A DNA stretch of 64,000 bases from a virus, in the IMG/VR virus record IMGVR_UViG_3300021365_000005, positions 33,457 to 97,456 of that record. One strand, given 5' to 3'. A program made the position numbers and the translations under genes. This document shows positions 6,175 to 63,582 of the stretch, one piece after another. The notes beneath the pieces were generated by a model. It ran no database searches and had not been told where the DNA came from. It saw only the letters and a list, made by a program, of their open reading frames with translations. How positions within the stretch are numbered: the first letter of the stretch is position 1; every line of letters begins with the position of its first letter.

Positions 6175-6546
6175 TTATCTCGTAACTTCTGGAGATAACT
6201 TTATCGAGCCTTGTAGTAATCTAGTTACTGTTGAAGAAGCAGGATCTTCTATTTCAATATCATAAACTGCTGAATCAAATGTGTAGTTCTTTGTAACAGA
6301 TGCTTCAATTCTAAGCTGTATAGTACCACTAGCTGTGGAATTGGTAGTAGCTAGTATAGTCATGCCACTTCCAGTTTCAAATGACCCTCCAACCACAGGA
6401 GCAGCATCTGTTATAGCATCTCGTATATGCATTCGTACTAAATAGCCATTTAGATCTACAACATTAGCACTTGAATCTTTATATGTGAATTGCTTTACTA
6501 CTGTTGTTCCTTGTTCTATGGTAAAATTATAAATGCCGGCTGCCAT
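6175..6546 (-). CDS. Ig-like virion adaptor protein (BppU-N/LtfC-like)
   Basis: MAAGIYNFTIEQG...AVYDIEI...RLLQGSIKLSPEVT pattern common in phage fibre adaptors; AGGAGA SD. Confidence 0.65.
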   Translation of the reverse strand: MAAGIYNFTIEQGTTVVKQFTYKDSSANVVDLNGYLVRMHIRDAITDAAPVVGGSFETGSGMTILATTNSTASGTIQLRIEASVTKNYTFDSAVYDIEIEDPASSTVTRLLQGSIKLSPEVTR

Positions 6547-6578
6547 GTGGGTCTCCTAAACGTGATTGTACTTCCATA

Positions 6579-6586
6579 TATAAATA
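6579..6586 (-). promoter_or_regulatory. Putative late promoter TATTTATA
   Basis: Motif in the intergenic gap upstream of 6546. Confidence 0.6.
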
Positions 6587-6611
6587 TACAAAAAAGTACT
6601 AAATGAATACA

Positions 6612-7292
6612 CTATAAAACTTTACCAGGTCTATCTTCATAAGCCTGAAGTATAAGTTTTAGTATTGGGTGTCTGTGATTTTCTAATAACTCGATGGTGT
6701 GTAGTCCAGCTACAGTTTTAATTGATTGCAAAAACTTTAACCCAGACTCTCCTGTAGACTTTAGATCTATTTGATCTGAATCTCCGCAAAACAACATTTT
6801 AGATCCTTTACCTATTCTTTGAAGAATCATTAAGGTTTGTTCATGGGTCAAGTTTTGGGCCTCATCTACAATTATTACAGAATTTGTAAAAGTACGGCCT
6901 CTCATATAAGATACAGGAACTATTTCAATTTGTCTATTACTTATCATAGCGTCTATACGCTCGCGCCTAAGTAGCTGATACATGTTTCCATATACAGGTG
7001 CTACCCATGGATCCATTTTGTCATCAATACCTCCTGGTAGATATCCCAGATCTTCTTTAGATATTGTAGGCCTTGTGATTATTATTTTTTCAACATGTTT
7101 ATCTAAGGCTAGGTTTAGTGCTATTTGACATGCTAATAAGGTTTTTCCAGATCCTGCATTTCCTAGTACGATTGACACATCATTTTCTAAGATTATAGAC
7201 TTTGCTTTTTTTTGCTCTGGGTTTAGAGATAATAAAAACCTATATCCTTTTTTATTATTTTTAGGCTTAACTTTTGAAAAACTTGTAGACAT
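6612..7292 (-). CDS. phoH: PhoH family ATPase
   Basis: GNAGSGKT, TRP, LGYLPG, YMRGRTF, DEAQN, GD..QID and HRHP motifs. Confidence 0.97.
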   Translation of the reverse strand: MSTSFSKVKPKNNKKGYRFLLSLNPEQKKAKSIILENDVSIVLGNAGSGKTLLACQIALNLALDKHVEKIIITRPTISKEDLGYLPGGIDDKMDPWVAPVYGNMYQLLRRERIDAMISNRQIEIVPVSYMRGRTFTNSVIIVDEAQNLTHEQTLMILQRIGKGSKMLFCGDSDQIDLKSTGESGLKFLQSIKTVAGLHTIELLENHRHPILKLILQAYEDRPGKVL

Positions 7293-7312
7293 TAAGATCT
7301 CCTTTTCTTTAC

Positions 7313-7320
7313 TATAAATA
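7313..7320 (-). promoter_or_regulatory. Putative late promoter TATTTATA
   Basis: Lies between the capsid terminator and the phoH SD. Confidence 0.65.
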
Positions 7321-7328
7321 TCTCACAC

Positions 7329-7360
7329 AAAAAAAGAGACTCAAATTAATGAGCCTCTTT
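7329..7360 (-). terminator. Intrinsic terminator after the major capsid gene
   Basis: AAAGAGGCTCA-TTAATT-TGAGTCTC followed by a T7 run. Confidence 0.85.
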
Positions 7361-7384
7361 CGTAGAATTATACTAAACTTAAAC

Positions 7385-8893
7385 TTAAAGGATGTTTGAA
7401 ACTGTTAGCTTAGCGTAGAAGTCTTTACGAACTACTTTCTTAGCATAACGTGTCATTACACCTTTACGTGGAGTAAAGTTGTTTGGATCATAAACCAATG
7501 GAGTCATGATTAGTGGGATATATGGAGCGTAAACCGCACCTGTTTCAAGGAATTGATTTCCTCGGAATCCTATAATCATATCTGCAGAGTTCCAATATGG
7601 ATTCTTGTAAACCTTATAACGGTTTGCAAAGTTTCCAATTTTTTCTACACCTGCTGCAAATCCATCTGTATTTCCATCTGTATCTACTGCGAAACTAGGA
7701 ATAGTTTCAAGAACAGTAGCAACATCAGGAGAACAAACGATAAAGTTTGCACCACCACGCATTGTCGCTCTGTGGATCTTATTAGATAGCTTTTGGATTT
7801 CATATCCAATAGTAGCATTGTGTGTACCTAACGTGTAAGCCCAAGGACCTGAAGACGTTTGATATCCCTTAGCAGAAGCATTTGTTGGATCACCGACCCA
7901 AGTGCCGCTAAAGCCAGCAGAAGAGTGTAGCATTTCAAGGATCTCTAGATCGATTTCCATTGCAATGTACTCAGATAACATTGAAGTTAATTCTGCTTCA
8001 GCATCAATTGAGTGATACGCATTTAAATCTTGTGCAAACTCTGGAGTCCATACAACTTTTAACTTACGTGTCTTAGCAACTAAAGCCTCTGACTCTAGAG
8101 AAACCTCTAGTTCTGGAATATTTAGTTGAGCTTCCTCAAGTTCATTTCCAACAGTGTGCTGGGCCTCGAAATCACCACGAAGACCAGCTGCAGTAGATAC
8201 ATCACCATTCTGTTCAAGTTGGTGATAGTGTACTGTTACAACGTCAGTTGCACCAGGCATACCACTGAATGTTACCTCACCGGTTGCTTGATCAAAAGAA
8301 GTAGCAGCGTATTCAGTAGATCCTGATACAGCGTATGCTGAAAGACCCATGTCTAAATCTGCCTTTGTAAAGCCACCTGCATTAAGCTTGGTTCCCTTAG
8401 CAGCTAGAGTAACTGAAGCAGTTGATTGGGGAGCTCGCATAGAGTAAGCAGAACGACCAGGACCAGGATAAAGACCTTTTGTAAAGTCAGTTGTAGCTGC
8501 CTTTCCGTTTGATCCGAATATTGACTGTGTGTTGTCTACTGGGAATTTATCATTACCATATTTGAAATCCAACCAGAAAACTAGACCTGAAGGTAAGTTC
8601 ATTGGTTGTACCGATACGAAATCTTTTGCTGAGATTTCTGCAAAGATACGTCTTACTAGGGGAAGAGCTACGCCATTCCACTCATCATTAGCTGTTGCAG
8701 TGTTGTTTGCCTCAGAGATAAGTTGTTTAGCTTGGTTTTCCAAAAGAATAGCAGTGTTATGTTTATCATATTCACCACCAAGTCCTTCTAAAAGTCCAGT
8801 CTTTTCCCATTTAGTAACGTAGCCTTGTGTTTCATTGCGTTGTGTCGCAAATGCTGCCTTAGAATCTTGCAGCAAGTTTGAAATATTTGACAT
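7385..8893 (-). CDS. gp23: Major capsid protein (T4 gp23-like)
   Basis: VSVQPM..PSGL.F, AKTRKLK..WTPEFAQDL.AYH.IDAE.EL, YAPYIPL, P..GVMTRY. Confidence 0.97.
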   Translation of the reverse strand: MSNISNLLQDSKAAFATQRNETQGYVTKWEKTGLLEGLGGEYDKHNTAILLENQAKQLISEANNTATANDEWNGVALPLVRRIFAEISAKDFVSVQPMNLPSGLVFWLDFKYGNDKFPVDNTQSIFGSNGKAATTDFTKGLYPGPGRSAYSMRAPQSTASVTLAAKGTKLNAGGFTKADLDMGLSAYAVSGSTEYAATSFDQATGEVTFSGMPGATDVVTVHYHQLEQNGDVSTAAGLRGDFEAQHTVGNELEEAQLNIPELEVSLESEALVAKTRKLKVVWTPEFAQDLNAYHSIDAEAELTSMLSEYIAMEIDLEILEMLHSSAGFSGTWVGDPTNASAKGYQTSSGPWAYTLGTHNATIGYEIQKLSNKIHRATMRGGANFIVCSPDVATVLETIPSFAVDTDGNTDGFAAGVEKIGNFANRYKVYKNPYWNSADMIIGFRGNQFLETGAVYAPYIPLIMTPLVYDPNNFTPRKGVMTRYAKKVVRKDFYAKLTVSNIL

Positions 8894-8914
8894 TATTGTC
8901 TCCTAAATTTTAAA

Positions 8915-9826: not shown

Positions 9827-9946
9827 ATTATTCTCCTTATATTATAATTAGGAAATAAGACTATTAGGAGTCTCAATAAAATTGTTTTGGATTGCATGTC
9901 TTGCCACATATTACGGATGGGGCATTTTTGCATGCTGGTTTCATAA
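9827..9946 (-). promoter_or_regulatory. Structured 5' leader of the scaffold-capsid operon
   Basis: GCATG/CATGC and TGCC/GGCA nested stem, GAGACT/AGTCTT hairpin, and TTCCT pairing with the AGGAG SD. Confidence 0.5.
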
Positions 9947-9954: not shown

Positions 9955-9977
9955 TATATGAATTTATAAAAGCCCAC

Positions 9978-10011
9978 AAAAAAAAGACCAAAGACGCTAA
10001 ATCTTTGATCT
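9978..10011 (-). terminator. Intrinsic terminator after bS21
   Basis: AGATCAAAGAT-TTAGC-GTCTTTGGTCT followed by a T run. Confidence 0.85.
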
Positions 10012-10037: not shown

Positions 10038-10364
10038 TTACATTGCTGTGCCGCCGCCTTGGCTGTCTTCTATAATAGCGGTCCAAATATAACCATCTTC
10101 TAGTTTTTTCTGGGCTTTCCATCTAAACTGCTCGTTACGACAAGCTTCGATTCGGGCTCTTCGTTTAACAGAAGTTGGTTTGGTATATGTTCGGCGATTC
10201 TTATACTCGTCGATTTTACCAGCTTCTTTTAGATTTTTTTTAAAACTTCTTAATGCACCTTCAAGTGCTGCTGAAGAATCGTCTGGCACCCTTACTCCAG
10301 TTCCACTTTTATCTAGTGTGAAGTCACTTCTTTTATAGCGCTTACGCTTTTTATAATCTTCCAT
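10038..10364 (-). CDS. rpsU: Phage-encoded ribosomal protein bS21, with N- and C-terminal extensions
   Basis: VRV...LEGALRSFKK...G.IDEYKNRR.YTKP..VKRR matches the bS21 core. Confidence 0.9.
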   Translation of the reverse strand: MEDYKKRKRYKRSDFTLDKSGTGVRVPDDSSAALEGALRSFKKNLKEAGKIDEYKNRRTYTKPTSVKRRARIEACRNEQFRWKAQKKLEDGYIWTAIIEDSQGGGTAM

Positions 10365-10389
10365 GTATACTTTATTAATTATTTACTAT

Positions 10390-10422
10390 GTAAATATACA
10401 AAAAAATAGTTGATATAAAAAA
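10390..10422 (-). promoter_or_regulatory. Putative host-type/middle promoter of bS21
   Basis: TTTTTTAT-N16-TATATTTAC. Confidence 0.5.
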
Positions 10423-10439
10423 TTTATTTGGGGTTATTT

Positions 10440-10781
10440 TTAAATAGACCTAAATTTAGGAGATCCTTTTACCGCTTCGTCTTTACCGGAAGCCGTCATC
10501 TGAACTAATAAATACCAATCTTCTTTACCATTAGTTACATAATATGCAGCCCAATCTTCTCCAGAAAAATAGACATCAGCGCCAGTTATATAGCTATCAT
10601 TATCTACACTACCATCTGAAGATTTCTTATCTAATAGAGACTTATACTTACTTGGAAAGTCTTTGAACTCCCATCCACTTTTTTTAAGGTCCTTAGCAAA
10701 TGATGGGAAATCGCTCATTTTTGAGATATCTTTGGGATGTGTATCTGATGATTCGTATAGGAGATTTTTTAATTTTATCAT
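10440..10781 (-). CDS. Putative internal head protein
   Basis: N-terminus MIKLKNLLYE-S shared with neighbours; in the head module. Confidence 0.6.
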   Translation of the reverse strand: MIKLKNLLYESSDTHPKDISKMSDFPSFAKDLKKSGWEFKDFPSKYKSLLDKKSSDGSVDNDSYITGADVYFSGEDWAAYYVTNGKEDWYLLVQMTASGKDEAVKGSPKFRSI

Positions 10782-12208: not shown

Positions 12209-12841
12209 TTATCTCTTGTTTGGAAGTGCACAGACACACGTTAAGTCACAAAGGACTTCATTTATTATAGTATTAACCCTATCGTACTTATTTAAGGGTA
12301 TTAGTTTATTATTTACAGATTCATTAATTGCAGGAGTCATAAATGCTCCATGGGTAGATGGGTTGCTTACAAAGTCCCAACACACTAATTCAAAGTCGTC
12401 TTGAACTTCTACACCAGCTGCAGATTCTTTTACCGAACCTAGACCTCTTGAGCTAATGCCTAATAGGATGCCAGCTTTTAGAAGTTCTTTTAAAATGTTT
12501 CCTGATGGTGTGCTAAGTACTTCTACTTCACCCATTAGGTCGTTATTTTTCCACCAGATTTTTCTAATGTTATGGGAAACATTGGCCAGGTTAACCACCG
12601 AAGAGTCTGGATGGTCTAGTTCACCAAGTGCTCGGTTTTGAGTTATAAATTGTTGATCATACTTTTTGGCTTCACGTTCTAGTACTGGACGTGGGTATAC
12701 CCTGCCGTTTTGATTTTCAGCACCTGCTCTTTGAAGAATTCCCTTTACAATTACCCTACCACCATTTTTGGCTTCAGACTCATTAATCATTTGGGGTGAA
12801 ATTTTAAATATATTATAATCAACCAGTAATTGTTTAGTCAT
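12209..12841 (-). CDS. gp21: Prohead core protease (T4 gp21-like); start revised to 12841
   Basis: NQNGRVYP, ALGELDHP, TPSG, GISSRGLGS, DFVSNPS. Confidence 0.95.
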   Translation of the reverse strand: MTKQLLVDYNIFKISPQMINESEAKNGGRVIVKGILQRAGAENQNGRVYPRPVLEREAKKYDQQFITQNRALGELDHPDSSVVNLANVSHNIRKIWWKNNDLMGEVEVLSTPSGNILKELLKAGILLGISSRGLGSVKESAAGVEVQDDFELVCWDFVSNPSTHGAFMTPAINESVNNKLIPLNKYDRVNTIINEVLCDLTCVCALPNKR

Positions 12842-12984
12842 TAGTTGCTCCAAGTTGACTTTTTACGATATAGATCAAAAAAGATTTTTGCAACTTCTTT
12901 TCTGATTACAGCTCTTATTATTGAAATGTCATCAGGGGTTAAATTTTCAGTAATGACTTTGTTGTTGGGCTTTTGGGTTGGCAT
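12841..12984 (-). CDS. Small head-module protein (47 aa); not in ORF track
   Basis: MPTQKPNNKVITENLTPDDISIIRAVIRKEVAKIFFDLYRKKSTWSN*; TAATG coupling at both ends. Confidence 0.75.
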   Translation of the reverse strand: MPTQKPNNKVITENLTPDDISIIRAVIRKEVAKIFFDLYRKKSTWSN

Positions 12985-14309: not shown

Positions 14310-16103
14310 CTATAAAGAGTTATCATCCATTATATTATTTTCACTAAGTAGGTTTTGGCGTTTAGACTTGGCTAATCCTTTTTCATCTAGAGATTTTATA
14401 AAGTTTTCTCTATTAACAGATCTAGTTTCCTTTCCTAATGGGTCTCGGCCTCTTGCTGAGTTTTGGGATACTCCATACTTTGGAGATTTTTTTGGCCTAC
14501 CACCTTCTGTCCCAAATTCTTCGTCGGTTTTAGCAGGGGCACCTTCAGGAGGGCCATCTGACTCTTCTGCGTCTATTGTTGCCAATGCATGAGGGGTTCC
14601 TAGGGTTTCTTGAGATTTAGATGGATCGTTACCTTCCATTTCGATTTGAGACTTTCTAAATGCTTGTTTAGTATCTTCTATTACACCTTCACGTTCACCT
14701 TCTACATCTTCGGAGTTAAGACCAAATACATTTTCATAGATCCAAGATTCTGAAAGCATTTTATTGCTTTTCATAGATTCTGCTAGGTCGACTTTAGATG
14801 ACCATAGTTCCATTTTTTCTTGTTCGGCAATTGTTGACGGATTAGATAATGTTAGTTTAAAGTCTACTAGATCGGCATCTGTATATCCCTGAGAATATAA
14901 ATGGACTATAGCTATTTTGGTTAATTCTGAAACGAATATTTTTTGAAGTCTTTCTATTGTTCTAGCAAATCGAACATCTTCAGCTGCTAACGTAGCTTTT
15001 TCGCCTAGGTTTTCATCATAGCCTAAAAATGCTTTTGGTATTTTTAAAGCAGCAAACATACGATTTCTTAAATATTCAATATCATCGATACCTCCAAAGT
15101 CCATACCAGATAAAGAATCGATTTCAGTTCCAGATTGACCACCTCTAACCGGAAGGAAAAAGTCCTCCATCATATTTTGCATGTTAAATTCTAAATTATA
15201 TTGTCCGGTTGCAGGATCTACAAAAGGAGTTTTTTTCATGCTATCAATAATTCTTTTCATATAGTTGTCAACTTCTGCAGGAGGAATATTTCCGATGTCG
15301 ATTTTAAATACTCTTTTTTCAGGAGCTCTCATGATTCTATGGATCATCATCGCATCTTCCATAAGAGTTAACTGTTTCCAGTTTTTGCGGGCTCCTTCTA
15401 TCATTGACTTACCATATGGGATAAAATTAGCATCACTTAATAGTCTAAAGTGTGCTATTTCATAATTATCATATTCATCTTGCTCTCTATTAACAGCACC
15501 GCCATACTGAGAAGCCCCTGCCATAGAAGGGTCGTGTACAAATTTAACAAGTTCTGGGTTTGAAGGATCTTCGCCGTCAATACGAACCATTTCGTAAGTT
15601 GACATAGGATGAACACCAGTAACTCCATACTTTTCAGTAATATCTAGCTTAAGATAAAAGTCCCCATACTTGCACATGTTTCTAATCCATGGCCACAAAT
15701 TAAATTCAATATTTAATACGTCATAAAAAAGGTTGTTTAGTATTTTTTCAACTTCTGAATTAGTGCTAGTGATTTCTAAAACATTTCCAAATTCATTTTT
15801 TAATGTTGACTCGTCTGCATAAATATCTAATGCTGAAGATATGATTGAATCTTCATCCATTAACTCATAGTCTGTAAATAGTTGCATTCGAATAGCATGA
15901 TAATTTGTATGAATTCCTCTACCTTCGCCACGTTGAGCTTGGTATAAGCGATTAAACCTATCAACCAACCTATTAGAAGCTAGGTCTGAACCTGCCTGTA
16001 TTTTATTAATGTCAACAACTTTAAGACCTTTATCAGCCCTTTGGATAATTGTTGAAGTAGAAAATAATGTTCTTAATCTACCAAAAAATGATTTATCGTT
16101 CAT
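14310..16103 (-). CDS. gp20: Portal vertex protein (T4 gp20-like)
   Basis: LMEDAM.I.RI.RAPEKRVF.ID.GN.P, EDFFLP.RGG..GTEI..L.G, ALKIP. Confidence 0.96.
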   Translation of the reverse strand: MNDKSFFGRLRTLFSTSTIIQRADKGLKVVDINKIQAGSDLASNRLVDRFNRLYQAQRGEGRGIHTNYHAIRMQLFTDYELMDEDSIISSALDIYADESTLKNEFGNVLEITSTNSEVEKILNNLFYDVLNIEFNLWPWIRNMCKYGDFYLKLDITEKYGVTGVHPMSTYEMVRIDGEDPSNPELVKFVHDPSMAGASQYGGAVNREQDEYDNYEIAHFRLLSDANFIPYGKSMIEGARKNWKQLTLMEDAMMIHRIMRAPEKRVFKIDIGNIPPAEVDNYMKRIIDSMKKTPFVDPATGQYNLEFNMQNMMEDFFLPVRGGQSGTEIDSLSGMDFGGIDDIEYLRNRMFAALKIPKAFLGYDENLGEKATLAAEDVRFARTIERLQKIFVSELTKIAIVHLYSQGYTDADLVDFKLTLSNPSTIAEQEKMELWSSKVDLAESMKSNKMLSESWIYENVFGLNSEDVEGEREGVIEDTKQAFRKSQIEMEGNDPSKSQETLGTPHALATIDAEESDGPPEGAPAKTDEEFGTEGGRPKKSPKYGVSQNSARGRDPLGKETRSVNRENFIKSLDEKGLAKSKRQNLLSENNIMDDNSL

Positions 16104-17689: not shown

Positions 17690-17697
17690 AACCTATA

Positions 17698-17705
17698 TAT
17701 AAATA
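17698..17705 (-). promoter_or_regulatory. Putative late promoter TATTTATA
   Basis: 8 nt upstream of the terminase ATG. Confidence 0.6.
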
Positions 17706-17710
17706 TATAC

Positions 17711-25268: not shown

Positions 25269-25269
25269 A

Positions 25270-25277: not shown

Positions 25278-25281
25278 TCAC

Positions 25282-41070: not shown

Positions 41071-41083
41071 TCTTAAATATTGA

Positions 41084-52851: not shown

Positions 52852-53481
52852 TTAGCCTATTTCGTCGATGATCCCAACTGCCATGGCTTCTTGAGCCGTG
52901 AAGTATTTGTCATGGGAAGTTTCTTGAGTCCACCACTTAGCGGGCTTTTTTGTATACTCTTCTAAGATCTCACCGATCATTATATCAATCTTAGTATAGT
53001 GTTCTGCAGTAGATTTTAAATCTCCAATTTTACCTGATGTAGTTCCCATACCTTGGTGCAACATTATTGAGGATCTTTTAGAAGCATATCGGGTTCCGGT
53101 ACCTGCAGCTAGTATAAGTGCTCCTGCTGACATTGCTTTCCCTCTGCAGATAGTATTAACAGGAACGTCTAGATTTTCCATATAGTCTATAATACCTAAG
53201 GCAGAAAACGCACAGCCGCCGAATGAATCTATAACTAAATTTATTGGAAGAGTTGCTTCAGACTCGTCTCTATTATTCATAACCATTCGACACTTAACGA
53301 TAATATCCGCTAGACTAAATTCGTCAATAGGACCTGTAAGGTAGACCAGAGAATCTTTAATTGATAATCCATTTTCCAATTCACTTAGATCTGGAGGAGT
53401 TTTCTCAATTGTTATTTCAATAGGAGTCTCGTCTTTTTTTAAGACTTTTTCTTTATATAAATCTTCTGACATGTTAATCAA
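52852..53481 (-). CDS. clpP: ClpP-family protease subunit
   Basis: I.S.GG, G.AMSAG (Ser), MLHQ (His), HD.YF.A.EA...G.ID (Asp). Confidence 0.92.
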   Translation of the reverse strand: MINMSEDLYKEKVLKKDETPIEITIEKTPPDLSELENGLSIKDSLVYLTGPIDEFSLADIIVKCRMVMNNRDESEATLPINLVIDSFGGCAFSALGIIDYMENLDVPVNTICRGKAMSAGALILAAGTGTRYASKRSSIMLHQGMGTTSGKIGDLKSTAEHYTKIDIMIGEILEEYTKKPAKWWTQETSHDKYFTAQEAMAVGIIDEIG

Positions 53482-56107: not shown

Positions 56108-56140
56108 TTAGGCAGCCATTGCTAGTTCAACTTGTTCGCC
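56108..56140 (-). other. tmRNA tag reading frame (A)GEQVELAMAA*
   Basis: TTAACT-GGC GAA CAA GTT GAA CTA GCA ATG GCT GCC TAA TAA; stops in a hairpin loop. Confidence 0.88.
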
Positions 56141-56201
56141 AGTTAATTGCGTTGTGATCTTCTGAATGCTCTTATCATATGGTCAAATCCAAAATCACCC
56201 C

Positions 56202-56268
56202 CATATTATATCTATTTGAATATAATTCATTAGATATTGATCATATTATATCTAATTGAATATAATTC
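56202..56268. repeat. 27-bp direct repeat, two copies, in the tmRNA intervening segment
   Basis: catattatatctaWttgaatataattc at 56202 and 56242; one mismatch. Confidence 0.9.
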
Positions 56269-56334
56269 TTTGTGGAGGTGGGGGGAGTCGAACCCCCGTC
56301 CCGATATGTAGCTGACACTCATACTTCGATCATC

Positions 56335-56342
56335 TATAAATA
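56335..56342 (-). promoter_or_regulatory. Putative late promoter TATTTATA driving the tmRNA
   Basis: Directly abuts the inferred 5' end of the acceptor piece. Confidence 0.7.
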
Positions 56343-56348
56343 TAAGGT

Positions 56349-56702
56349 CTAGCTCATTAATGCTGAGAGTTTCTTATGTTTATTATATAGTTTATTCACG
56401 ATCTTGAGATCGGTGTTATCCTTCAGCTTTGTAGATCGATATTTCATTAGAATATCAAATACTTGTTTAGCATCAGATTTAATATCAGCAGAGTCAAAGT
56501 TTCTTAAGCCAGTCGACCTTTTAATATTATCATGGATCAGAGCTAGTACTATATCTAATTTTTTAATAGTAGAATCTGAATCATTCTCATCCTCTAGAGA
56601 ATTCATAAAGGTGTTTAGGGTTCCAGTTAAATTTGAGTTACCCCTTTTCCTCCACTCCTTTTTTTCTAGAGGCTTTTGTTTTTGCTTTTTTGGCATTAAC
56701 AT
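56349..56702 (-). CDS. Hypothetical protein
   Basis: Open frame in the operon; start uncertain. Confidence 0.55.
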   Translation of the reverse strand: MLMPKKQKQKPLEKKEWRKRGNSNLTGTLNTFMNSLEDENDSDSTIKKLDIVLALIHDNIKRSTGLRNFDSADIKSDAKQVFDILMKYRSTKLKDNTDLKIVNKLYNKHKKLSALMS

Positions 56703-56856
56703 TATCCTGGGTTTTTGTATACTCTTTGAGGATGTCGATTATGACATGTTTATCTAGCACGGTAGTTGTCATCTGAGACAACTTACTTCGAAAATAAAAA
56801 TAGCTCCAAAGTCCACCTATCGTAGCTCCGCTTATAAATACCATTATACTATTCAT
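56638..56856 (-). CDS. Small membrane-anchored protein
   Basis: N-terminal TM helix, basic tail. Confidence 0.55.
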   Translation of the reverse strand: MNSIMVFISGATIGGLWSYFYFRSKLSQMTTTVLDKHVIIDILKEYTKTQDNVNAKKAKTKASRKKGVEEKG

Positions 56857-57184
56857 AAGTTTTACTCCATTGACTTACAGGTGTTCCAGTACCAGCATCT
56901 AACATACCCATACGTCGAGCAGTGTTATATTGGTATTGGGCATCTTTAAGTGTGTCCATGATACGTGACGCTTCAGAAGCTGTAATTTCAAACTCCCGAC
57001 CTCCAATACATAACGAACCAATCAATGGTTGTTCAGCAGGAGGTGTAGGTCTTTGAGCTTTCATTCCTTTAGCCAGTTTAAAGTTTATACCATTCCATAG
57101 TTTTCCATATTTGTCAGGATTAAACTTTGGTTTGGATCGTTCCCTATTGGAACCTTGTTTGTAAGAATTATTATTCTTTACCAT
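56849..57184 (-). CDS. Hypothetical protein
   Basis: 111-aa ORF after an AT-rich gap. Confidence 0.6.
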   Translation of the reverse strand: MVKNNNSYKQGSNRERSKPKFNPDKYGKLWNGINFKLAKGMKAQRPTPPAEQPLIGSLCIGGREFEITASEASRIMDTLKDAQYQYNTARRMGMLDAGTGTPVSQWSKTYE

Positions 57185-57308
57185 TTATTAAAAATTTAGA
57201 TTATTAAAACAACACCCGGTTAACATACTTGTTATTATATTAGTATATGTTAACTTATTATTAAATTTGTATATTTTATTACTTGAAAGTAAGTAGAATA
57301 ATTACATT

Positions 57309-57341
57309 GTAAATATAATACATAAACTCCACATAAAAAAA
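57309..57341 (-). promoter_or_regulatory. Putative host-type/middle promoter
   Basis: TTTTTTTAT, spacer, TATATTTAC. Confidence 0.45.
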
Positions 57342-57611
57342 TTATTCAAGAGGTTTATTTTGAATTCCTTCAACTAATTCGTCAACTACCAACTCTGCTT
57401 GGAGATTCTGGAGTGAAGCACATCTTTCATACTCTTCTTTAGCTAAAAAATGAGCTATAAGGCCTTCGATAAGTTTGGTAATAGGAAAGTCTTGGCTGAA
57501 TGCCGTGCTACCATGTTCTACTAACATAAGGTAAGCTTGTTCAGCAGCCATATCCGCAATATATTCGGTTATTTTAGGAAATTCTGTTTCGTCAAATGTA
57601 TGATTCATCAT
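57342..57611 (-). CDS. Small protein with a UVR (UvrB/C)-like motif
   Basis: F.AKEEYERCA.L; TATTTATA at 57613-57620. Confidence 0.6.
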   Translation of the reverse strand: MMNHTFDETEFPKITEYIADMAAEQAYLMLVEHGSTAFSQDFPITKLIEGLIAHFLAKEEYERCASLQNLQAELVVDELVEGIQNKPLE

Positions 57612-57622
57612 ATATAAATATC

Positions 57623-58093
57623 TTATTGAACTTTAGAAATGTTTTCTTTGTTGCTAAGGTATTCTACAACTGATTTCCAATTCATTTCGGTTCCAAAGTG
57701 AATATGTTCGCCCTTAAAATCTTCTACGCCATTCCAAACGTTGTCGTCGATTAAATAATCGCCACGAACCAAACCTTTGTTGTGAGTTAAGATTAATTTC
57801 TTCCTAGCTTTTTCTCCTAGAACGTTGTCGACCCATAATCTCTTGTCGATCCAGCTTGAAGGATTCCTCCAGCTCGGAGATGAGCAGATATAAACATCGA
57901 AATGTTCGTTAAGCCAATTAAAAGCATCGAGTGCTCCAGGCATAGGTTCTAAATCCCGGTAAAAACCAGGAATTCCATGGCAGTCATAGTGTTTATCCTT
58001 TAGCCATTGAGGCATAAGTGCCGCTTTCATATCATAATCGCATAGGACTCCGTCCATGTCGACTAAAACTATTTTTTTATTTTTCATTTTCAA
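57623..58093 (-). CDS. 5'(3')-deoxyribonucleotidase (HAD, NT5C-like)
   Basis: VDMDGVL.D, GFY..L.PMPGA, K..W, GDYLIDD. Confidence 0.92.
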   Translation of the reverse strand: MKMKNKKIVLVDMDGVLCDYDMKAALMPQWLKDKHYDCHGIPGFYRDLEPMPGALDAFNWLNEHFDVYICSSPSWRNPSSWIDKRLWVDNVLGEKARKKLILTHNKGLVRGDYLIDDNVWNGVEDFKGEHIHFGTEMNWKSVVEYLSNKENISKVQ

Positions 58094-58568
58094 ATTTTCT
58101 GATTAAATCTACGTGAAATTGTCTAGGGTATTCATTCTCATCTTCTACAACCCAAAATGATTTGCCATAAAAGCCCCCTATAGTGACAGTTCGATCACAC
58201 CAAGGTTCAAGGATTTCATTAAAACAGTCAAGACGATAGACTTCGTCATAACATCTAAGTAAAACCTTCATACCTTTTGCTAATTTTACCTTACGATTAG
58301 CTAATATTTCGGAAAATATTTCGTTTGGTATAAAACTTTTGTCTAGCTTTGGGCATTTTAGACTTGAAGTTGGATTCCAATGTGAAGCAAGAGCAACTCT
58401 TACCACCATAGATTGTTTTACAACGCCAATTATTTCTAAAACCTTGCGTCTTGTTGCCTGTTCGGACCTGCCGATTTGCAAAGCTACTTTTTTTATTACT
58501 TCACCATCAATATCTTCGTTGACATGAGGAAGTATTTTGAGAATTTCTTCGTTTTTCCAGTAATTCAT
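58077..58568 (-). CDS. Hypothetical protein
   Basis: N-terminal HTH-like segment (VA..IGRS..A.R.K). Confidence 0.55.
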   Translation of the reverse strand: MNYWKNEEILKILPHVNEDIDGEVIKKVALQIGRSEQATRRKVLEIIGVVKQSMVVRVALASHWNPTSSLKCPKLDKSFIPNEIFSEILANRKVKLAKGMKVLLRCYDEVYRLDCFNEILEPWCDRTVTIGGFYGKSFWVVEDENEYPRQFHVDLIRKFENEK

Positions 58569-59032
58569 TATCTGTCTAATTGCTTATTAACCTTATCCCA
58601 ATATTTTTGGGTGGCTTTTTTTGTTAGTCCTCTTGGACCTCCGTTCCAACACCTAGCTTTTGCTTCCGGAGAAGTTAGTTTATAGTGTTCACAGTAGATA
58701 TTGAAAATTTCAATGGACTTAATTCTGTTCCATCTATCTTTCATTTTGTATTTGGTGGTGTCGCCTCTGTGTTTAAGGATTCTATTGACATCCCTTATCA
58801 TTGTTCTCCTGATCTGCAAACAACCAACGGCATCTTCTGATGAACAATAGGCTGAATCATTGCCAGAACTTTCAACGTGTATAAGCGCATATACTAGACT
58901 ATCATTTTCGATATGGACTAATGTATGGGGCTTAGCTTTAAGTGGCTGTATTGGACTCTGCAATGGCTTAATTACAACCCCTGCAGAGCTTATTAAAAGC
59001 ATAGCAAATCCTAATAGGATAAATCGCTTCAT
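58568..59032 (-). CDS. Exported lysozyme-fold muralytic enzyme (SLT/i-type-like)
   Basis: N-terminal signal or anchor, ALI.VES, G.LQI, AR.WNGGP. Confidence 0.82.
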   Translation of the reverse strand: MKRFILLGFAMLLISSAGVVIKPLQSPIQPLKAKPHTLVHIENDSLVYALIHVESSGNDSAYCSSEDAVGCLQIRRTMIRDVNRILKHRGDTTKYKMKDRWNRIKSIEIFNIYCEHYKLTSPEAKARCWNGGPRGLTKKATQKYWDKVNKQLDR

Positions 59033-59328
59033 AGATTAACTGAAACGATAGCTGCTTCTAATAGAGAATCTAGTTCGGCTTCCAGTTTAGAAGCGAGTTT
59101 GTCCCTGAAAGGCTTATTACTTTCGTTAGTGACTAAGACAGATTCTGGACGAGAGGGTCTGAACCAAATACTAAGTTTAGTTTCAGGATTACTGAAGACA
59201 ATTTCCGAACCTTCGTCGTCGGTATCATATCCGAGTTCCTCCATGTGTTCGATAAGGAAGTATTTAATTACTCCTAATTTATGTTTCTTAGTAGATTTAG
59301 AAGATTTTGTTATTACAGGTAAGTCCAT
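59029..59328 (-). CDS. Hypothetical early protein
   Basis: First gene after a 60-bp element. Confidence 0.6.
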   Translation of the reverse strand: MDLPVITKSSKSTKKHKLGVIKYFLIEHMEELGYDTDDEGSEIVFSNPETKLSIWFRPSRPESVLVTNESNKPFRDKLASKLEAELDSLLEAAIVSVNL

Positions 59329-59366
59329 TTTTTAGTGGGTTTTAATGTTTAATAGTTAATTGATGT

Positions 59367-59426
59367 ACATAGCTAATATACAGCTTTATCTGTAGAAGCT
59401 ACGAGGATAATCGTTAAAGTTCGTTA
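59367..59426 (-). promoter_or_regulatory. 60-bp early promoter-like element, copy 1
   Basis: TAACG-N4-TTAACGA-N7-CGTAG-N17-GTATATT-N2-CTATGT; ungapped match to three other copies. Confidence 0.8.
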
Positions 59427-59521
59427 AGATTAAAGACGATTATAATAAAAATAGTTCCAAGGGTGATTAAGCCTGTGTAGTAGATAATTGAATCTACAAT
59501 CGAGTCGAATGAATTTTTCAT
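59414..59521 (-). CDS. Small membrane peptide (35 aa); not in ORF track
   Basis: MKNSFDSIVDSIIYYTGLITLGTIFIIIVFNLNEL*. Confidence 0.5.
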   Translation of the reverse strand: MKNSFDSIVDSIIYYTGLITLGTIFIIIVFNLNEL

Positions 59522-59522
59522 A

Positions 59523-59765
59523 TTAACTTAAGATTGTTAAAAGTGATTTAGGACAGTTGATTTTTCTATTAGCTCCATTTTCTTTAATGATGCAATTGAC
59601 GGTATTAACTTTAGTAACCAGAAATTTAATTCCATGGTATTTAGGTTTGTTAATAGCAACGACAGTACCAATATTGAAAGCGTTATAGGATAGTAGTTTG
59701 ATCTGAGTGTTGATGTCAGACTTAAGCTTTTGAAGCTCGTTTAAGTTTAAATTTTTAATGTTCAT
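59523..59765 (-). CDS. Hypothetical early protein (SH3/KOW-like C-terminal half)
   Basis: F.IG..V....VTKVN pattern. Confidence 0.6.
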   Translation of the reverse strand: MNIKNLNLNELQKLKSDINTQIKLLSYNAFNIGTVVAINKPKYHGIKFLVTKVNTVNCIIKENGANRKINCPKSLLTILS

Positions 59766-59796
59766 TAGTATAGTGGGTTAAATGAATGATTGATTG

Positions 59797-59856
59797 ACAT
59801 AGTCAATATACGACTTATACTACAAATACTACGATGTTCCTCGTTAAAAAACGTTA
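59797..59856 (-). promoter_or_regulatory. 60-bp early promoter-like element, copy 2
   Basis: acatagtcaatatacgactta...ctacga...tcgttaaaaaacgtta on the plus strand. Confidence 0.82.
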
Positions 59857-59876
59857 AAATTTTTAAATTATTTTTC

Positions 59877-61196
59877 TTATGTAGTTCTTTCGGCCCCGTG
59901 TATAACTTTAACAGTTGGGAATCTTAAGGACCAATCCCCATCCTGGTTCTGAGTCTCTTCGAAGTATGCTACAGTAATTAGTTTGCCTATAATGTCCTTA
60001 GGACTTTTATGGTAGCGTATACGTTCTTGTTGACTAAAGCCAGATCCCACCGCCACTTTAAATCCTTTGTGCTCGATAAATACCTGGGCAAGCATATCCA
60101 TTTTAACTTCTTTACCATCTCTGATAACCCTGTGCTCTCTGAAGTCGCATCCTGTAACTTCATACTCTGCATCATGGAATGTTTTAACCTTAAGAAGATT
60201 GTTAGAACGTTTGCCTTCATATCCTACATTTTTACGAATCATGAATCCTTCCCACTGATTATCCTTGGCCATATCTTGCCATGTTTCAAAGTGCGAATCG
60301 CTTCGTAAAGGAAAGTGCTCTACGTATTGAAGTGTGTCTCCATCCGACGAGTCCACTATAGAACTAGCAACTCTTAGTCTTTTTTCTAGAGGCTCATCAC
60401 CTACTTTATCGTCAAAGGTTTTTTTAGAAATACAGTCGAAGATTTTAAATTTAGGATTCTGGATAGTGTGGTCCTTGCGTCTAATCTCTTTCATAATTGC
60501 CTGGAAGTCCTCGTTGTCCAGATCATTACATATACAGATCTCGCCATCTAAAACAATGTTAACCAAGTTAAGAGCTTCTATATCTTTAACAACTTTATCC
60601 AAGGTATCAAAGACTTGGCCTTGACGCGATCGTAATTCCACCCGCCCCGTCGCATCCACAACAGCAAGGCAGCGCACCCCATCAAGTTTACGAGAAGCAT
60701 ACCAAATAGCATCGGCATCACGATTAGAGAGATCCACAAGTTTAGGTTGGTAGACATTAGCCAATGCAGGTTTAAATGTGGGGATCCACCCAGGCACAAT
60801 GGCATTAAACACCCCATCACTAGCACGCACTTCTAAGTTGCGGTCAACCACACTAAAGATTAAATCCTCATATGCTTTGTTTAGAAATACGTAGCCATTG
60901 ACTTTTGCAATAGCATCATGTCCGGTGTAGACCCTGTTATTGAGATCATCTAGTAACTCGAATATGTTGGCATAGCCATGTGTGACATCCAGAAGATCCG
61001 GATTAGCTCGACATGTTTTAGATGTAACATGGTAGACCCGGAATGGATCATAAGTGTATTCGACGAGCTTAACCAGGAATGAATGACACTTGTAGATGTG
61101 TATAATTTCTTTCTTGACCGTGGTCTTGGAATTGGCTTTCATTTCACGAACAAAGTCGGCAGCCAGCGACCAGTTGTCTTTAGGGTGGTTTATCAT
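59877..61196 (-). CDS. ATP-dependent DNA ligase
   Basis: KLDGVR, LDGEI, IFD, WEG.M.R, KRS..LLKVK, VGSG, SLRFP. Confidence 0.96.
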   Translation of the reverse strand: MINHPKDNWSLAADFVREMKANSKTTVKKEIIHIYKCHSFLVKLVEYTYDPFRVYHVTSKTCRANPDLLDVTHGYANIFELLDDLNNRVYTGHDAIAKVNGYVFLNKAYEDLIFSVVDRNLEVRASDGVFNAIVPGWIPTFKPALANVYQPKLVDLSNRDADAIWYASRKLDGVRCLAVVDATGRVELRSRQGQVFDTLDKVVKDIEALNLVNIVLDGEICICNDLDNEDFQAIMKEIRRKDHTIQNPKFKIFDCISKKTFDDKVGDEPLEKRLRVASSIVDSSDGDTLQYVEHFPLRSDSHFETWQDMAKDNQWEGFMIRKNVGYEGKRSNNLLKVKTFHDAEYEVTGCDFREHRVIRDGKEVKMDMLAQVFIEHKGFKVAVGSGFSQQERIRYHKSPKDIIGKLITVAYFEETQNQDGDWSLRFPTVKVIHGAERTT

Positions 61197-61570
61197 TTAG
61201 TAGAGGTATCGGAGTGAACGTATTCAATAATGGTTTCAACAGGAAGATCGTAGAGCTCCGCTAGATAGTGGAGACCATTGCCTTGCTTGTAGAGCGATCG
61301 GGCTTCATTGACTTGGCCGGCGTTGAGTTCGCTATGTGGAAAGTACTTGGCATCCCATTCCGGAAACACTTTGAAGAGTTCAGGAGGAAATGGTTGCCGT
61401 CTAGTAAGAAGAGTGTTCAGAGCATGTTCGCAACTCTCACAATGAAGGTTAAGACTTTCGGGTAGGTCTATGTCCAAATCGTGGAGTAGTGAGCGTCGGG
61501 CCTTGAGCTTATCAGTGAGGGTGGTTAAAAATTCCCTTTGAGAGATGTAGTCTAGTGGTGCTGTTGTCAT
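61193..61570 (-). CDS. Hypothetical protein with C-terminal HTH
   Basis: V.EAR.LY..G.....LAE.Y....TI. Confidence 0.6.
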   Translation of the reverse strand: MTTAPLDYISQREFLTTLTDKLKARRSLLHDLDIDLPESLNLHCESCEHALNTLLTRRQPFPPELFKVFPEWDAKYFPHSELNAGQVNEARSLYKQGNGLHYLAELYDLPVETIIEYVHSDTSTK

Positions 61571-61574
61571 GGTT

Positions 61575-61796
61575 CTAGTAATATTTTATGATGTTGCCGT
61601 TTTTGGTGATGAGATTAATACCTAGTTCTATTTCAATTTTGCGGAAGTCCAATCGGCCCATATGAATGGCTTGTTGAAGCGCCGTCGCAAACACAGGATA
61701 AGGTAGCGCGAGGTCACTCCGTTCGGTAAACCACTCATAGAGCAATTCGGCACCTTGTCCGGTGTTCTTGAATGTTATGTATTGGTCTCGGGTCAT
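61575..61796 (-). CDS. Hypothetical early protein
   Basis: Tightly packed ORF. Confidence 0.55.
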   Translation of the reverse strand: MTRDQYITFKNTGQGAELLYEWFTERSDLALPYPVFATALQQAIHMGRLDFRKIEIELGINLITKNGNIIKYY

Positions 61797-62081
61797 TTAG
61801 AGTTTAGGCTCGTAGAGTCGCCACCACTTATTGAGGATCTTGAGTGTGCGCTTCCGAGGTTCTTGACCTTCTTGGACACAGATCATGAGCTTGCGAAGTT
61901 GGGTGACGTGAAGACACGTGGTGGGTGTTGAGGGATGGTACCCGATCCTAGTGATGAGACTCTCAATCTTCTTCATGAAGTTCACAACAAGAGCCTGTTG
62001 GTCCATGTCCGAGATCTCACTGTCGGTGTACCAATGGCGGGGATCCGCCTTGGGTAGGCCATTGTCGTCGCGTTCAAACAT
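61797..62081 (-). CDS. Hypothetical early protein
   Basis: Tightly packed ORF. Confidence 0.55.
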   Translation of the reverse strand: MFERDDNGLPKADPRHWYTDSEISDMDQQALVVNFMKKIESLITRIGYHPSTPTTCLHVTQLRKLMICVQEGQEPRKRTLKILNKWWRLYEPKL

Positions 62082-62314
62082 TAGTTGTGTTTCATACCTG
62101 TCATGACCCCATAACCTTTGCGAGCGGAGAGTCGGTTAATATTGTCGGCCACCTCTTTGGGTAGCACTTGGATTGTGTTGCCGGTTTTATGATTGCTTAT
62201 AGCCACGCATCCATAAGGTTGAGTGGTGCTACAGTTCACACACGTGTGGTAGCCCAAAGCGGTGCGGCCGGCAGGGATAGTGGCTTTACAGCCGCATTTA
62301 AGGAGAGTGCTCAT
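62081..62314 (-). CDS. DksA/TraR-type C4 zinc-finger protein
   Basis: C.C...IP.GR...G...CV.CS. Confidence 0.65.
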   Translation of the reverse strand: MSTLLKCGCKATIPAGRTALGYHTCVNCSTTQPYGCVAISNHKTGNTIQVLPKEVADNINRLSARKGYGVMTGMKHN

Positions 62315-62544
62315 TGGTCTTCGTCTACTGTGATGAATTGGTTAGAGTAGTCTATGCCTTCGAGAATATCGATAGCATGCTCGAGAGCTGCCGTCATGTT
62401 GTTTACAAGCGACTCTAGTCCACTGCTTCTAACACAGTTATTGATTTCGTAGCACATATCATTTGTTTCGTTGATAGCTCTAACTGCTTGTTTTAATTCG
62501 GGGACACATCCCCAACCGTCTTCGGTGGTTTTTATTTTACTCAT
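62311..62544 (-). CDS. Hypothetical early protein
   Basis: First gene after element copy 3. Confidence 0.6.
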   Translation of the reverse strand: MSKIKTTEDGWGCVPELKQAVRAINETNDMCYEINNCVRSSGLESLVNNMTAALEHAIDILEGIDYSNQFITVDEDQ

Positions 62545-62570
62545 TTGTTATGGGTTTGAGTGATTAATGA

Positions 62571-62630
62571 ACATAGTCAATATACAATATAATTTGCAAA
62601 GACTATGAGGAATTTCGTTAAAGAACGTTA
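62571..62630 (-). promoter_or_regulatory. 60-bp early promoter-like element, copy 3
   Basis: Ungapped match to the other copies. Confidence 0.8.
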
Positions 62631-62978
62631 GTCTAGGTATGAATCAGATTTATAGAAAGGATCAGTGTTCTGGGCTTCGGCCTTCTTGGCGAACCATTCA
62701 GGAGAGTAGGGTCCTTCGTTCTTAAAGGACACAAGGCAGCGTCCTGTGGTGGCACTGTAGCTTCCTATGTCCTTTATTCTGGGTAGTAGGCCTCCGTTCT
62801 CTTGAACAAGTTCCTGGAGGAATTTATTGATGGGCTCTTGCATGGCTTCGCCATATCCCAAAGGATTTGAACTTAGCACCGGGATGTATTTTGGGTCCAT
62901 CTCCCTGTAGATCGTGACCTTGGGAAATAGCCTTGTGTAGTTCTTAGTGCTGGTAATTGGAGTGTGGATTTTATTCAT
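62628..62978 (-). CDS. Hypothetical early protein
   Basis: 116-aa ORF coupled to the upstream gene. Confidence 0.55.
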   Translation of the reverse strand: MNKIHTPITSTKNYTRLFPKVTIYREMDPKYIPVLSSNPLGYGEAMQEPINKFLQELVQENGGLLPRIKDIGSYSATTGRCLVSFKNEGPYSPEWFAKKAEAQNTDPFYKSDSYLD

Positions 62979-63189
62979 TATTTTTATTTATTATGTTCTC
63001 TATGAAAGTCCTTTGGGTGTCCCGTACTTCTTTGTCGAATTCGGTTGCAGATAGTGAACTCGAGCCTTTGGCTTGGTTCTTAGATTCCTGGATCATTGCG
63101 TGGGCTTTTGCCATTGTGAGTTCCCCTGAAAGAACCCTTTTTAATGTGTGGGCCTTGAATTCGAGGAAGGTTTTTAGGTGCTCATTCAT
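62971..63189 (-). CDS. Hypothetical early protein, paralog of 63186..63398
   Basis: LKTFLEFKAHTLKR...GELT...A..IQ. Confidence 0.65.
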   Translation of the reverse strand: MNEHLKTFLEFKAHTLKRVLSGELTMAKAHAMIQESKNQAKGSSSLSATEFDKEVRDTQRTFIENIINKNNE

Positions 63190-63398
63190 TTTTTATATCT
63201 TTGGCTTGCTTCGTCCAGTAGCTCCTGGAGGAAGTCTTTTTTAGTTAAGTGGCTTGCGAGGATAGCAGCATCTAGTGCAGGCTGAATTAGTATGTTGGCC
63301 ATACGAGGAGTTATTTCTCCTGCGGCTGCTCTTTTGAGCGTGTTGGCCTTGAACTCTATAAACTTTAGTACTTCGGGATTGACCTTTCGTGGGTTCAT
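63186..63398 (-). CDS. Hypothetical early protein, paralog of 62971..63189
   Basis: LKFIEFKANTLKR...GEIT...A..IQ. Confidence 0.65.
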   Translation of the reverse strand: MNPRKVNPEVLKFIEFKANTLKRAAAGEITPRMANILIQPALDAAILASHLTKKDFLQELLDEASQRYKK

Positions 63399-63411
63399 GA
63401 TTCTATGTGTT

Positions 63412-63582
63412 TTATTTAGTGATGTTGTTCTTCCAAGTTTTGACTGATAGTCTTGCTTCTAAGCCATCCTCATCAATTATAATGATGTCTCTCATTAGCA
63501 CTTTTGTGACTATGCCTCTGTACGCTCCATCGTCATAGTGAAGCTTGTCACCTATTTTGAAATATTTAGAAGTCTTAGACAT
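63412..63582 (-). CDS. Small SH3-like early protein (56 aa); not in ORF track
   Basis: MSKTSKYFKIGDKLHYDDGAYRGIVTKVLMRDIIIIDEDGLEARLSVKTWKNNITK*. Confidence 0.7.
   Translation of the reverse strand: MSKTSKYFKIGDKLHYDDGAYRGIVTKVLMRDIIIIDEDGLEARLSVKTWKNNITK

Follow-up and report, generated by a model that had tools for sequence, protein, structure and literature searches.

In the Flavobacterium johnsoniae system, Tyr54 of ribosomal protein bS21 stacks on A1534 where the tail of the 16S rRNA turns into the pocket formed by bS6, bS18 and bS21 (Jha et al. 2021, PMC7797042). Substitution Y54A, deletion of the C-terminus or depletion of bS21 raises the output of reporters with strong Shine-Dalgarno sequences (SDs) 1.7- to 5-fold, in vivo and in vitro, while the C-terminal deletion lowers initiation on SD-less mRNAs (McNutt et al. 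2023, PMC9976891). The protein is a late addition during ribosome assembly and can dissociate from mature ribosomes (PMC9976891). Replacement of the host protein by a phage bS21 was proposed by McNutt et al. (PMC9976891) and Chen et al. (PMC9723584), and a phage protease directed against host bS21 was raised as speculation in PMC9976891. Phage bS21 is widespread and its role has so far been speculative; in the 64,000-nt stretch of viral DNA analyzed here (the window) and in about 65 relatives, it is linked to measurable SD sites on the phage's own late messages.

The window comprises bases 33457-97456 of a 97,456-bp linear virus record from IMG/VR (IMGVR_UViG_3300021365_000005), for which a completeness of 56% and a full genome of about 174 kb were estimated with CheckV. 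The phage is a T4-like myophage, and its roughly 112 genes all lie on the minus strand. The bS21 gene is located between the prohead protease gene and the scaffold and capsid genes, the order of starts along that strand being terminase (17689), portal (16103), protease (12853), bS21 (10364), scaffold (9826) and capsid (8893). The 33 kb beyond the window carry the neck, sheath and tube genes and a replication block encoding SSB, UvsX, an exonuclease, DnaB, ribonucleotide reductase (RNR), a thymidylate synthase homologue, dUTPase and DNA polymerase. Genes without a name are designated below by the window position of their start, and the coordinates of all features are collected in Table 1.

Start signals of early and late genes

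Early and late classes can be defined independently of SDs, by position and function and by promoter motif. SDs were scored as the pairing energy of leader positions -20 to -3 with the 16S tail CACCUCCUUU, and leaders at or below -5 kcal/mol were called SD-rich. Late genes are SD-enriched and early genes SD-depleted relative to background. The 71 late or structural genes had a mean energy of -4.23 kcal/mol, with a four-nucleotide core in 35 and an energy at or below the threshold in 30 (42%), whereas the 19 genes of the early block averaged +0.14 kcal/mol and contained neither a core nor an SD-rich leader. The 13 genes of the replication block outside the window averaged -1.35 kcal/mol, with two cores and two SD-rich leaders. 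Background was taken from internal ATGs, upstream of which 15% (early genes) and 18% (late genes) of the sites reached the threshold, and from mononucleotide-shuffled late leaders (12%). The sequence-only reading had called for anti-SD pairing energies to be compared between early and late genes; over the contig, early and replication genes together differed significantly from late genes (Mann-Whitney p = 1e-9; label permutation p = 1e-5). At the head of a unit (gap >25 nt), SD-rich leaders were present in 18/23 late genes (78%) and in 0/7 early genes.

The cores of late genes stack at positions -16 to -9, with GGAG lying 5-12 nt (mostly 5-9) from the ATG, and hardly any are found at positions -40 to -17 or at the start of the coding sequence. 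Late genes thus carry canonical SDs, the CCUCC-complementary core lying 5-9 nt upstream of the start and being commoner than in the background. The profile of early genes is flat, and their leaders are G-poor (8% G) and A/C-rich, none of the 19 containing a core. Site by site the earlier assignments were reproduced: AGGAG or AAGGAG precedes 8893, 9826, 7292, 6546, 20847, 41044, 50690 and 51021; AGGA or GGAG precedes 2457, 5524, 16103, 18399, 23994, 26970, 31872, 33877, 39282, 46547 and 49243; and no SD is present before 63582, 63398, 62544, 59765, 59328, 57184 and the bS21 gene (10364). The description of the SD-less leaders as A/C-rich held for the early block and had to be amended for bS21, the leader of which is A/T-rich.

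Conservation of these sites was followed in three relatives of the same clade (L005, L006 and L007), whose capsid proteins are 71-75% identical to that of this phage. In these relatives the flanking leader bases differ, yet the SD cores of capsid, scaffold, PhoH, portal, protease, 12205, 13412 and 2457 have been kept. The capsid SD is kept in all three, and that of the scaffold gene is kept in L006 and L007 despite differing flanks. Since the cores persist in orthologues while the bases around them change, the late SDs appear to be under selection as functional signals. Alignment with the relatives also bears on one annotation: for the prohead protease, the ATG at 12841, 12 nt inside the annotated start and behind TGGAG as in L005 and L007, is a likelier start than the TTG at 12853.

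The intergenic regions fall into three promoter-like classes, E, M and L. Class E is a four-block motif of about 55 nt, TTAACG…TTTAACGA…TCGTAG…GTATATT[GA][AG]CTATG (the last block also written GTATATTGACTATG). Its six copies are conserved in blocks and spacing and occur on the coding strand only, and in none of the six does a block match TTGACA or TTTG at the -35 position. Class M, AATAAATTTTTTAT-N17-TATATTTAC, was found before the bS21 gene, the SSB gene (genome 12194), a small gene (genome 13607) and window gene 57184. Class L is the late motif ATATTTATA, with 18 copies on the coding strand and none on the other, all of them intergenic; one lies before the transfer-messenger RNA (tmRNA) and the others 1-66 nt upstream of a start codon. 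Genes next to a late motif were SD-rich in 63% of cases (mean -5.15), compared with 12% (mean +0.37) for those next to GTATATT (p = 0.0008).

The typical late module consists of GATATTTATA, 6-10 nt, AGGAG, 5-8 nt and ATG, which implies very short 5' leaders. Besides the example in Table 1, four window genes (20847, 7292, 5524 and 49243) have this layout of late motif, short leader and SD, as do the neck, sheath and tube genes outside the window. The distance from SD to ATG is fixed, and that from late motif to ATG ranges from 16 to 66 nt; some internal genes that lack a late motif, capsid and scaffold among them, also have an SD. Terminase, 25268 and 4321 had been listed as late genes without a clear SD, and this was confirmed. 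In the first two the late motif nearly abuts the ATG; together with 57611 they look like leaderless late genes, and the arrangement at terminase is kept in L005 and L007. Gene 4321 has GAG only. Start signals are therefore split by expression class: the leaders of E genes and of most M genes are poor in G, rich in A and SD-less, and genes with the late motif are SD-led or leaderless.

The phage bS21 gene and protein

The bS21 leader has a pairing energy of -0.5 kcal/mol, and L005-L007 all retain it, even though protein identity is only 38-39% (with L006 and L007). With a class M motif upstream and a terminator-like hairpin downstream, the gene forms a separate unit inside the late head operon. 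Its promoter-like motif is shared with the SSB gene, a replication gene, and is not the late motif. From this insulation and the shared class M motif we infer that bS21 would be expressed before the late genes.

The product matches PF01165 over residues 34-77 (41.2 bits; cut-off 27), and 37 solved bS21 chains in the PDB were matched using phmmer. Of these structures the Firmicutes and E. coli proteins are the closest (E = 5e-6 to 2e-4), and F. johnsoniae bS21 (7JIL) is the weakest match (E = 0.13). Both termini of the phage protein are extended, the N-terminus by a basic stretch and the C-terminus with a W-T-A-I hairpin. In an AlphaFold model (mean predicted local distance difference test score, pLDDT, 79.8) helices span residues 31-47 and 50-57, and an unbroken helix at 63-89 is followed by a small hairpin. 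The helical hairpin typical of bS21 is present in the model, with a K62-P63-T64 hinge followed by the long basic helix. A Foldseek search with the model gave no meaningful match, which is not surprising for an extended helical protein taken in isolation. The full HMMER scan yielded 54 bS21 relatives, and a word-based protein search returned near-identical copies only. In a tblastn search of the cultured-phage collection, neither this protein nor the 75-aa type found in some relatives gave a match, though phage Mel-JY01 carries an annotated S21; the miss is probably due to the short query or to low-complexity masking. The 100- to 125-aa, mostly viral bS21 forms share a C-terminal W-T-[AT]-I-[VI]-D-G, modelled as a small beta hairpin (10038-10100, minus strand, in this gene).

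For comparison with hosts, bS21 proteins of 64-69 aa from three Bacteroidota metagenome-assembled genomes (MAGs) were aligned using MAFFT, the alignment being free of gaps through the last helix; all residue-54 assignments in this work are those of the MAFFT alignment. The three host proteins read K-A-[AI]-Y and have Tyr54, the column of which is occupied by Arg76 in the phage protein. Because residues 63-89 form one unbroken helix in the model, no insertion or deletion shifts the register at Arg76. The 22 residues that follow K-P-T carry a net charge of +6 in the phage protein and +2 to +4 in the host proteins. The phage bS21 thus lacks the Tyr54 signature of Bacteroidia-type sequestration, and at 108 aa it departs from the short (about 64 aa) Bacteroidia form with a weakly basic C-terminus. 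In these MAGs, rpsU of Sphingobacterium and Flavobacteriaceae (L162, L163) is preceded by GAGAGGAGGT, the extended SD of bS21 autoregulation described by McNutt et al., and that of Bacteroidales (L164) by AAGGA only.

Table 1. Positions of features in the window (genome positions where so marked)
Feature	Position	Strand	Remarks
bS21 gene	10038-10364	-	108 aa; PF01165
bS21 leader and class M motif	10365-10450	-	no SD; …TAAATAATTAATAAAGTATAC-ATG; AATAAATTTTTTAT-N17-TATATTTAC
Intrinsic terminator-like hairpin	9975-10011	-	11 pairs and T8 run, 27 nt after bS21 stop
Capsid (Gp23) leader	8894-8913	-	TTTAGGAGACAATA-ATG; canonical SD 6 nt before start codon
Scaffold leader	9827-9846	-	ATAAGGAGAATAAT-ATG
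Late module, example	41045-41071	-	GATATTTATA-TATACCAA-AGGAG-ACATA-ATG
Late motif of terminase	17690-17706	-	ends 8 nt before ATG
Late motif at 25268 and 57611	25269-25278, 57612-57621	-	ends 1 nt before ATG
Class E copies, in window	59329-59425, 59766-59855, 62545-62627, 63583-63660	-	before 59328, 59765, 62544, 63582
Class E copies, outside window	genome 13192-13251, 2692-2752	coding strand	before endonuclease and DNA polymerase genes
Late/structural region	403-51021	-	baseplate, portal, terminase, prohead protease, scaffold, Gp23 capsid, PhoH, others
Early block	56349-63919	-	19 mostly small genes plus DNA ligase
PhoH	6612-7292	-	
Gp23 capsid	7385-8893	-	
gp21-like prohead protease	12209-12853	-	
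T4-type portal	14310-16103	-	
Large terminase	16115-17689	-	
Fused Mre11/Rad50-like protein	33935-37087	-	replication gene embedded in late region
Primase	37074-37991	-	replication gene embedded in late region
Baseplate wedge	46551-48401	-	
ClpP-like protease	52852-53481	-	second protease besides the gp21-like prohead protease
Permuted tmRNA	56108-56343	-	Rfam RF04321, 59.5 bits; directly behind late motif ATATTTATA; predicted tag GEQVELAMAA
DNA ligase	59877-61196	-	within early block

Two other observations were made on gene content. The fused Mre11/Rad50-like protein is encoded by one open reading frame of 1050 aa, combining an N-terminal calcineurin-like phosphoesterase (Mre11/gp47-like) with an SMC/Rad50 (gp46-like) ATPase; in T4, by contrast, gp47 and gp46 are separate genes. 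Outside the window (genome L003:3206-5851) the thymidylate synthase homologue, a 459-aa protein of unknown function (phrog_16728) and the dUTPase adjoin the DNA polymerase gene.

Related phages and host clues

Relatives were collected by capsid protein and comprised 67 IMG/VR loci, 44 MAG contigs and four records of the cultured collection (Mel-JY01, immuto, LR756508 and RM378). The count was confined to loci that had 8 or more genes and sufficient upstream sequence, about 65 contigs. Where bS21 is present at the syntenic place, 39/41 loci are SD-rich (30-80% of genes at or below -5 kcal/mol); where it is missing, 23/24 are SD-poor (0-29% of genes, mostly below the 13-20% background). The expectation that relatives without bS21 would also lack late SDs was thus borne out, the Flavobacterium phage immuto being one of the 23. 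The complete genome of immuto contains no bS21 gene anywhere and is 6% SD-rich genome-wide, which is below background; its capsid leader, aaaaaaacacaaaaaaccaca-ATG, is A/C-rich without an SD, and the early leaders of the present phage resemble immuto leaders. A similar picture was obtained for G002 (81% complete).

The form of the protein follows the same division. A query with the host-type protein against viral contigs recovered 21 loci with bS21 on the opposite strand, Tyr at position 54 (His in one) and SD-rich fractions of 0-0.18. The sister of this phage's clade (L010/G009) has Phe at 54 and 25% SDs, with none on capsid, portal or terminase, and L137, likewise with Phe at 54, has 10%. 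Phage bS21 with an aromatic residue 54 therefore goes with SD-poor neighbourhoods. In Mel-JY01, which belongs to a second lineage and has Lys at 54, 60% of the genes with a late motif are SD-rich compared with 7% of those with the GTATATT motif (p = 0.02). The ancestor of the group probably had both SDs and bS21.

Clues to the host were sought in several parts of the genome. One was the tmRNA, which after bS21 is a second gene of the phage with a bearing on translation. The tmRNA tags of Bacteroidota MAGs are GENNYALAA and GEGNYALAA, and the predicted phage tag likewise starts with GE, which is a weak host clue. Among relatives, G001 and G003 have tmRNAs of the ordinary type with tags …NDEPTYAYAA, which we take to resemble the proteobacterial ANDENYALAA type, and immuto and G002 have no tmRNA. 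In the capsid tree the major capsid protein (MCP) clade of this phage groups with the immuto clade and not with the clade that has SDs in every region. The GTATATT core with TTGC-N17, common to this phage and immuto, fits sigma-70 and Bacteroidota layouts alike.

Three further approaches to the host were rejected. MAG labels proved uninformative, the contigs being mis-binned: SD-rich and SD-poor types both occurred in Flavobacteriales, Alphaproteobacteria, Actinobacteria and archaeal bins. The promoter element TAnnTTTG was not enriched in this phage or in immuto. Typical Bacteroidota RNRs were 39-40% identical to the phage enzyme, and a single 61% match was probably to another phage contig. 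A scan of the large tail proteins revealed no Bacteroidota-specific domain.

A side observation concerns Mel-JY01 (L073/W02, PP395634), whose intergenic regions contain 14 copies of TTG-N17-21-TAnnTTTG (1.14 per kb vs 0.17 per kb genome-wide). This is the typical Bacteroidota promoter layout, readable also as TTGCAT-17-TATATT, and Flavobacterium phage immuto has a matching early promoter architecture. Re-examination of the cyanobacterial host recorded for Mel-JY01 may be worthwhile.

Proposed mechanism, rival explanations and known systems

Four findings call for a common account: the split of SDs by expression class, the separate SD-less bS21 unit, Arg at position 54 and the distribution among relatives. 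The best single account of them is that the phage bS21 re-tunes host ribosomes to SD-led late messages, a reading we adopt tentatively and with rather less than even confidence. Phage bS21 would be made before the late genes, from its insulated SD-less unit with the SSB-type promoter motif. As the leader is SD-less and the motif of the SSB type, it is proposed that unmodified host ribosomes could translate the message. The protein would then replace the exchangeable host bS21 on 30S subunits. With Arg for Tyr54 and a longer, more basic third helix, the hybrid ribosome would release the 16S 3' tail (in a Bacteroidia host) or pair with SDs more readily. Late phage messages with an SD would then gain initiation at the expense of host and early messages, which lack one. 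At that point the bS21 message, itself SD-less, would limit its own synthesis, in mirror image to the SD-driven autoregulation of host rpsU.

A narrower version treats the phage bS21 as an anti-SD unmasking factor that converts SD-ignoring Bacteroidia ribosomes to SD-reading ones, whereupon late phage messages take over. These messages would be the sole SD-bearing mRNAs in the cell besides host rpsU. This version is possible and at the same time doubtful. The translation switch put forward in the sequence-only reading accordingly fared unevenly: the SD contrast, the SD-less bS21 unit and the comparison of relatives came out in its favor, and the link between bS21 and SDs could not be carried beyond what ancestry or host tracking would give.

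Several points weigh against a bS21-driven switch. In the protein itself, the stacking role of Tyr54 might be taken over by Phe80 and Trp82, which follow Arg76 at a distance of one to two helical turns; in their own phages, Chen et al. treated aromatic residues of this region as equivalent to Tyr54 (PMC9723584). The split by class is imperfect, some M-class or replication genes (SSB, RNR, primase, Mre11/Rad50) bearing SDs. In the capsid tree the SD-poor phages without bS21 form one clade (support 93), so that the correlation amounts to about one loss event, or two to three with the Phe54 cases, and host tracking predicts the same pattern among relatives, phages of SD-blind hosts dropping SDs and dropping or adapting bS21. 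Individual relatives also depart from it. In G001 and G003 about 60% of the genes have an SD whatever the region, and bS21 is among them; they form, with about 25 loci encoding the 75-aa bS21, a large sister clade in which SDs occur in every region, and bS21 is therefore no temporal switch there. SDs are nearly absent from LR756508, whose bS21 is non-aromatic, and L149 is SD-rich without bS21. The clues to a Bacteroidota host are indirect and mixed. Mel-JY01, with the same late-only SD pattern, was deposited with Microcystis as host. The tmRNA of the present phage is permuted, a type that is typical of alphaproteobacteria and cyanobacteria.

The strongest alternative, which we regard as a serious possibility though still short of probable, is that SD use simply tracks the host. 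The host would read SDs, even if weakly, as in cyanobacteria or Proteobacteria; late SDs would serve high output from very short leaders, early leaders would be of an A-rich, S1-type kind, and bS21 would have another role, such as a general boost to initiation, replacement of a damaged or hibernation-blocked host protein, or countering a translation-targeting defense. The correlation of bS21 and SDs would then reflect host phylum, phages of Bacteroidia having lost both. Much of what was listed above fits: the SDs throughout G001 and G003, bS21 included, the Microcystis record of Mel-JY01, the affinities of the phage protein and the permuted tmRNA. To this is added that the SD-poor clade without bS21 contains the only confirmed Bacteroidota phage. 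On the other hand, the early leaders are depleted below background (0/19 vs 15%) and immuto-like, in which the relatives with SDs throughout differ; the tmRNA tag starts with GE as in Bacteroidota, and the MCP clade groups with that of immuto. Host tracking also leaves unexplained why bS21, of all ribosomal proteins, travels with SD use.

It is unlikely that SD-led late translation is instead carried out by ribosomes without any bS21, the host protein having been removed or outcompeted by another factor such as the ClpP-like protease. The phage bS21 might in that case restore an essential N-terminal function or serve after takeover. F. johnsoniae ribosomes lacking bS21 do read SDs, and a phage protease has been speculated upon (PMC9976891); Clp proteases are mentioned in the context of bS21 phages both there and by Chen et al. 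(PMC9723584). A ClpP-like protease gene is present in the window, and LR756508 indicates that a non-aromatic bS21 by itself is not accompanied by SD use. The near-perfect co-occurrence is, however, with bS21 itself, and immuto-type phages manage without either. Very improbable is the view that late SDs are relics, or part of a late promoter or start-site element, and the contrast incidental: SDs do directly follow the late motif in many units and the group ancestor probably had both SDs and bS21, but their spacing is fixed to the ATG and not to the motif, they occur on internal genes without a motif, they are conserved while flanks diverge, and immuto has the same late motif without SDs.

If bS21 does re-tune the ribosome, a virus would re-specify mRNA selection by swapping one ribosomal protein, a temporal switch operated through ribosome composition. 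This would provide a concrete function for the ribosomal protein most often encoded by phages and would help to explain the partitioning of translation in SD-blind Bacteroidia. Phage bS21 and the idea of ribosome takeover are already known. A connection with late genes that bear SDs, and with a protein form that does not sequester the anti-SD, is apparently unpublished, the literature searches having found no paper, McNutt et al. and Chen et al. included, that connects phage bS21 to SDs on phage genes. Reporters, strains and an in vitro system exist for F. johnsoniae, and there are cultured relatives with bS21 (Mel-JY01) and without it (immuto).

Of described phages, the myophages of Chen et al. 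2022 (ISME Commun 2:31, PMC9723584), which were assigned Bacteroidetes hosts, are like this one in having bS21 among the terminase, portal, prohead protease, scaffold and capsid genes, and the role proposed for it there, as here, is substitution into host ribosomes in favor of late phage messages. Their genomes are 293-331 kb, their bS21 gene is on the opposite strand, and the Tyr, His or Phe at position 54 was read by the authors as keeping the anti-SD blocked. The present phage differs in its size of about 174 kb, its same-strand bS21 unit, the Arg at 54 and its late SDs. No SD analysis was reported in PMC9723584, and the 21 loci of that type recovered here are SD-poor. Pelagibacter phage HTVC008M (Mizuno et al. 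2019, cited in PMC9976891) is T4-like and has a bS21 reported to enter E. coli ribosomes, with no link to SDs described in the account of it given there. Its capsid belongs to a different lineage and did not appear among the matches above 30% identity. Judged by capsid (49% identity), the closest cultured relative is Flavobacterium phage vB_FspM_immuto (NC_055915), with which the present phage shares the gene order from terminase to PhoH, the TATTTATA late motif and the GTATATT promoter core; immuto differs in having no bS21, SD-like leaders on 6% of genes only and no tmRNA.

In the F. johnsoniae system (PMC7797042, PMC9976891) the protein and the lever are the same, and subpopulations of ribosomes differing in bS21 select different mRNAs. 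There the lever serves host homeostasis and acts on one gene, rpsU, which has an extended SD, whereas here a foreign bS21 would act on many late phage genes. The SD-less message of the phage bS21 is the opposite design to that of F. johnsoniae rpsU with its extended SD.

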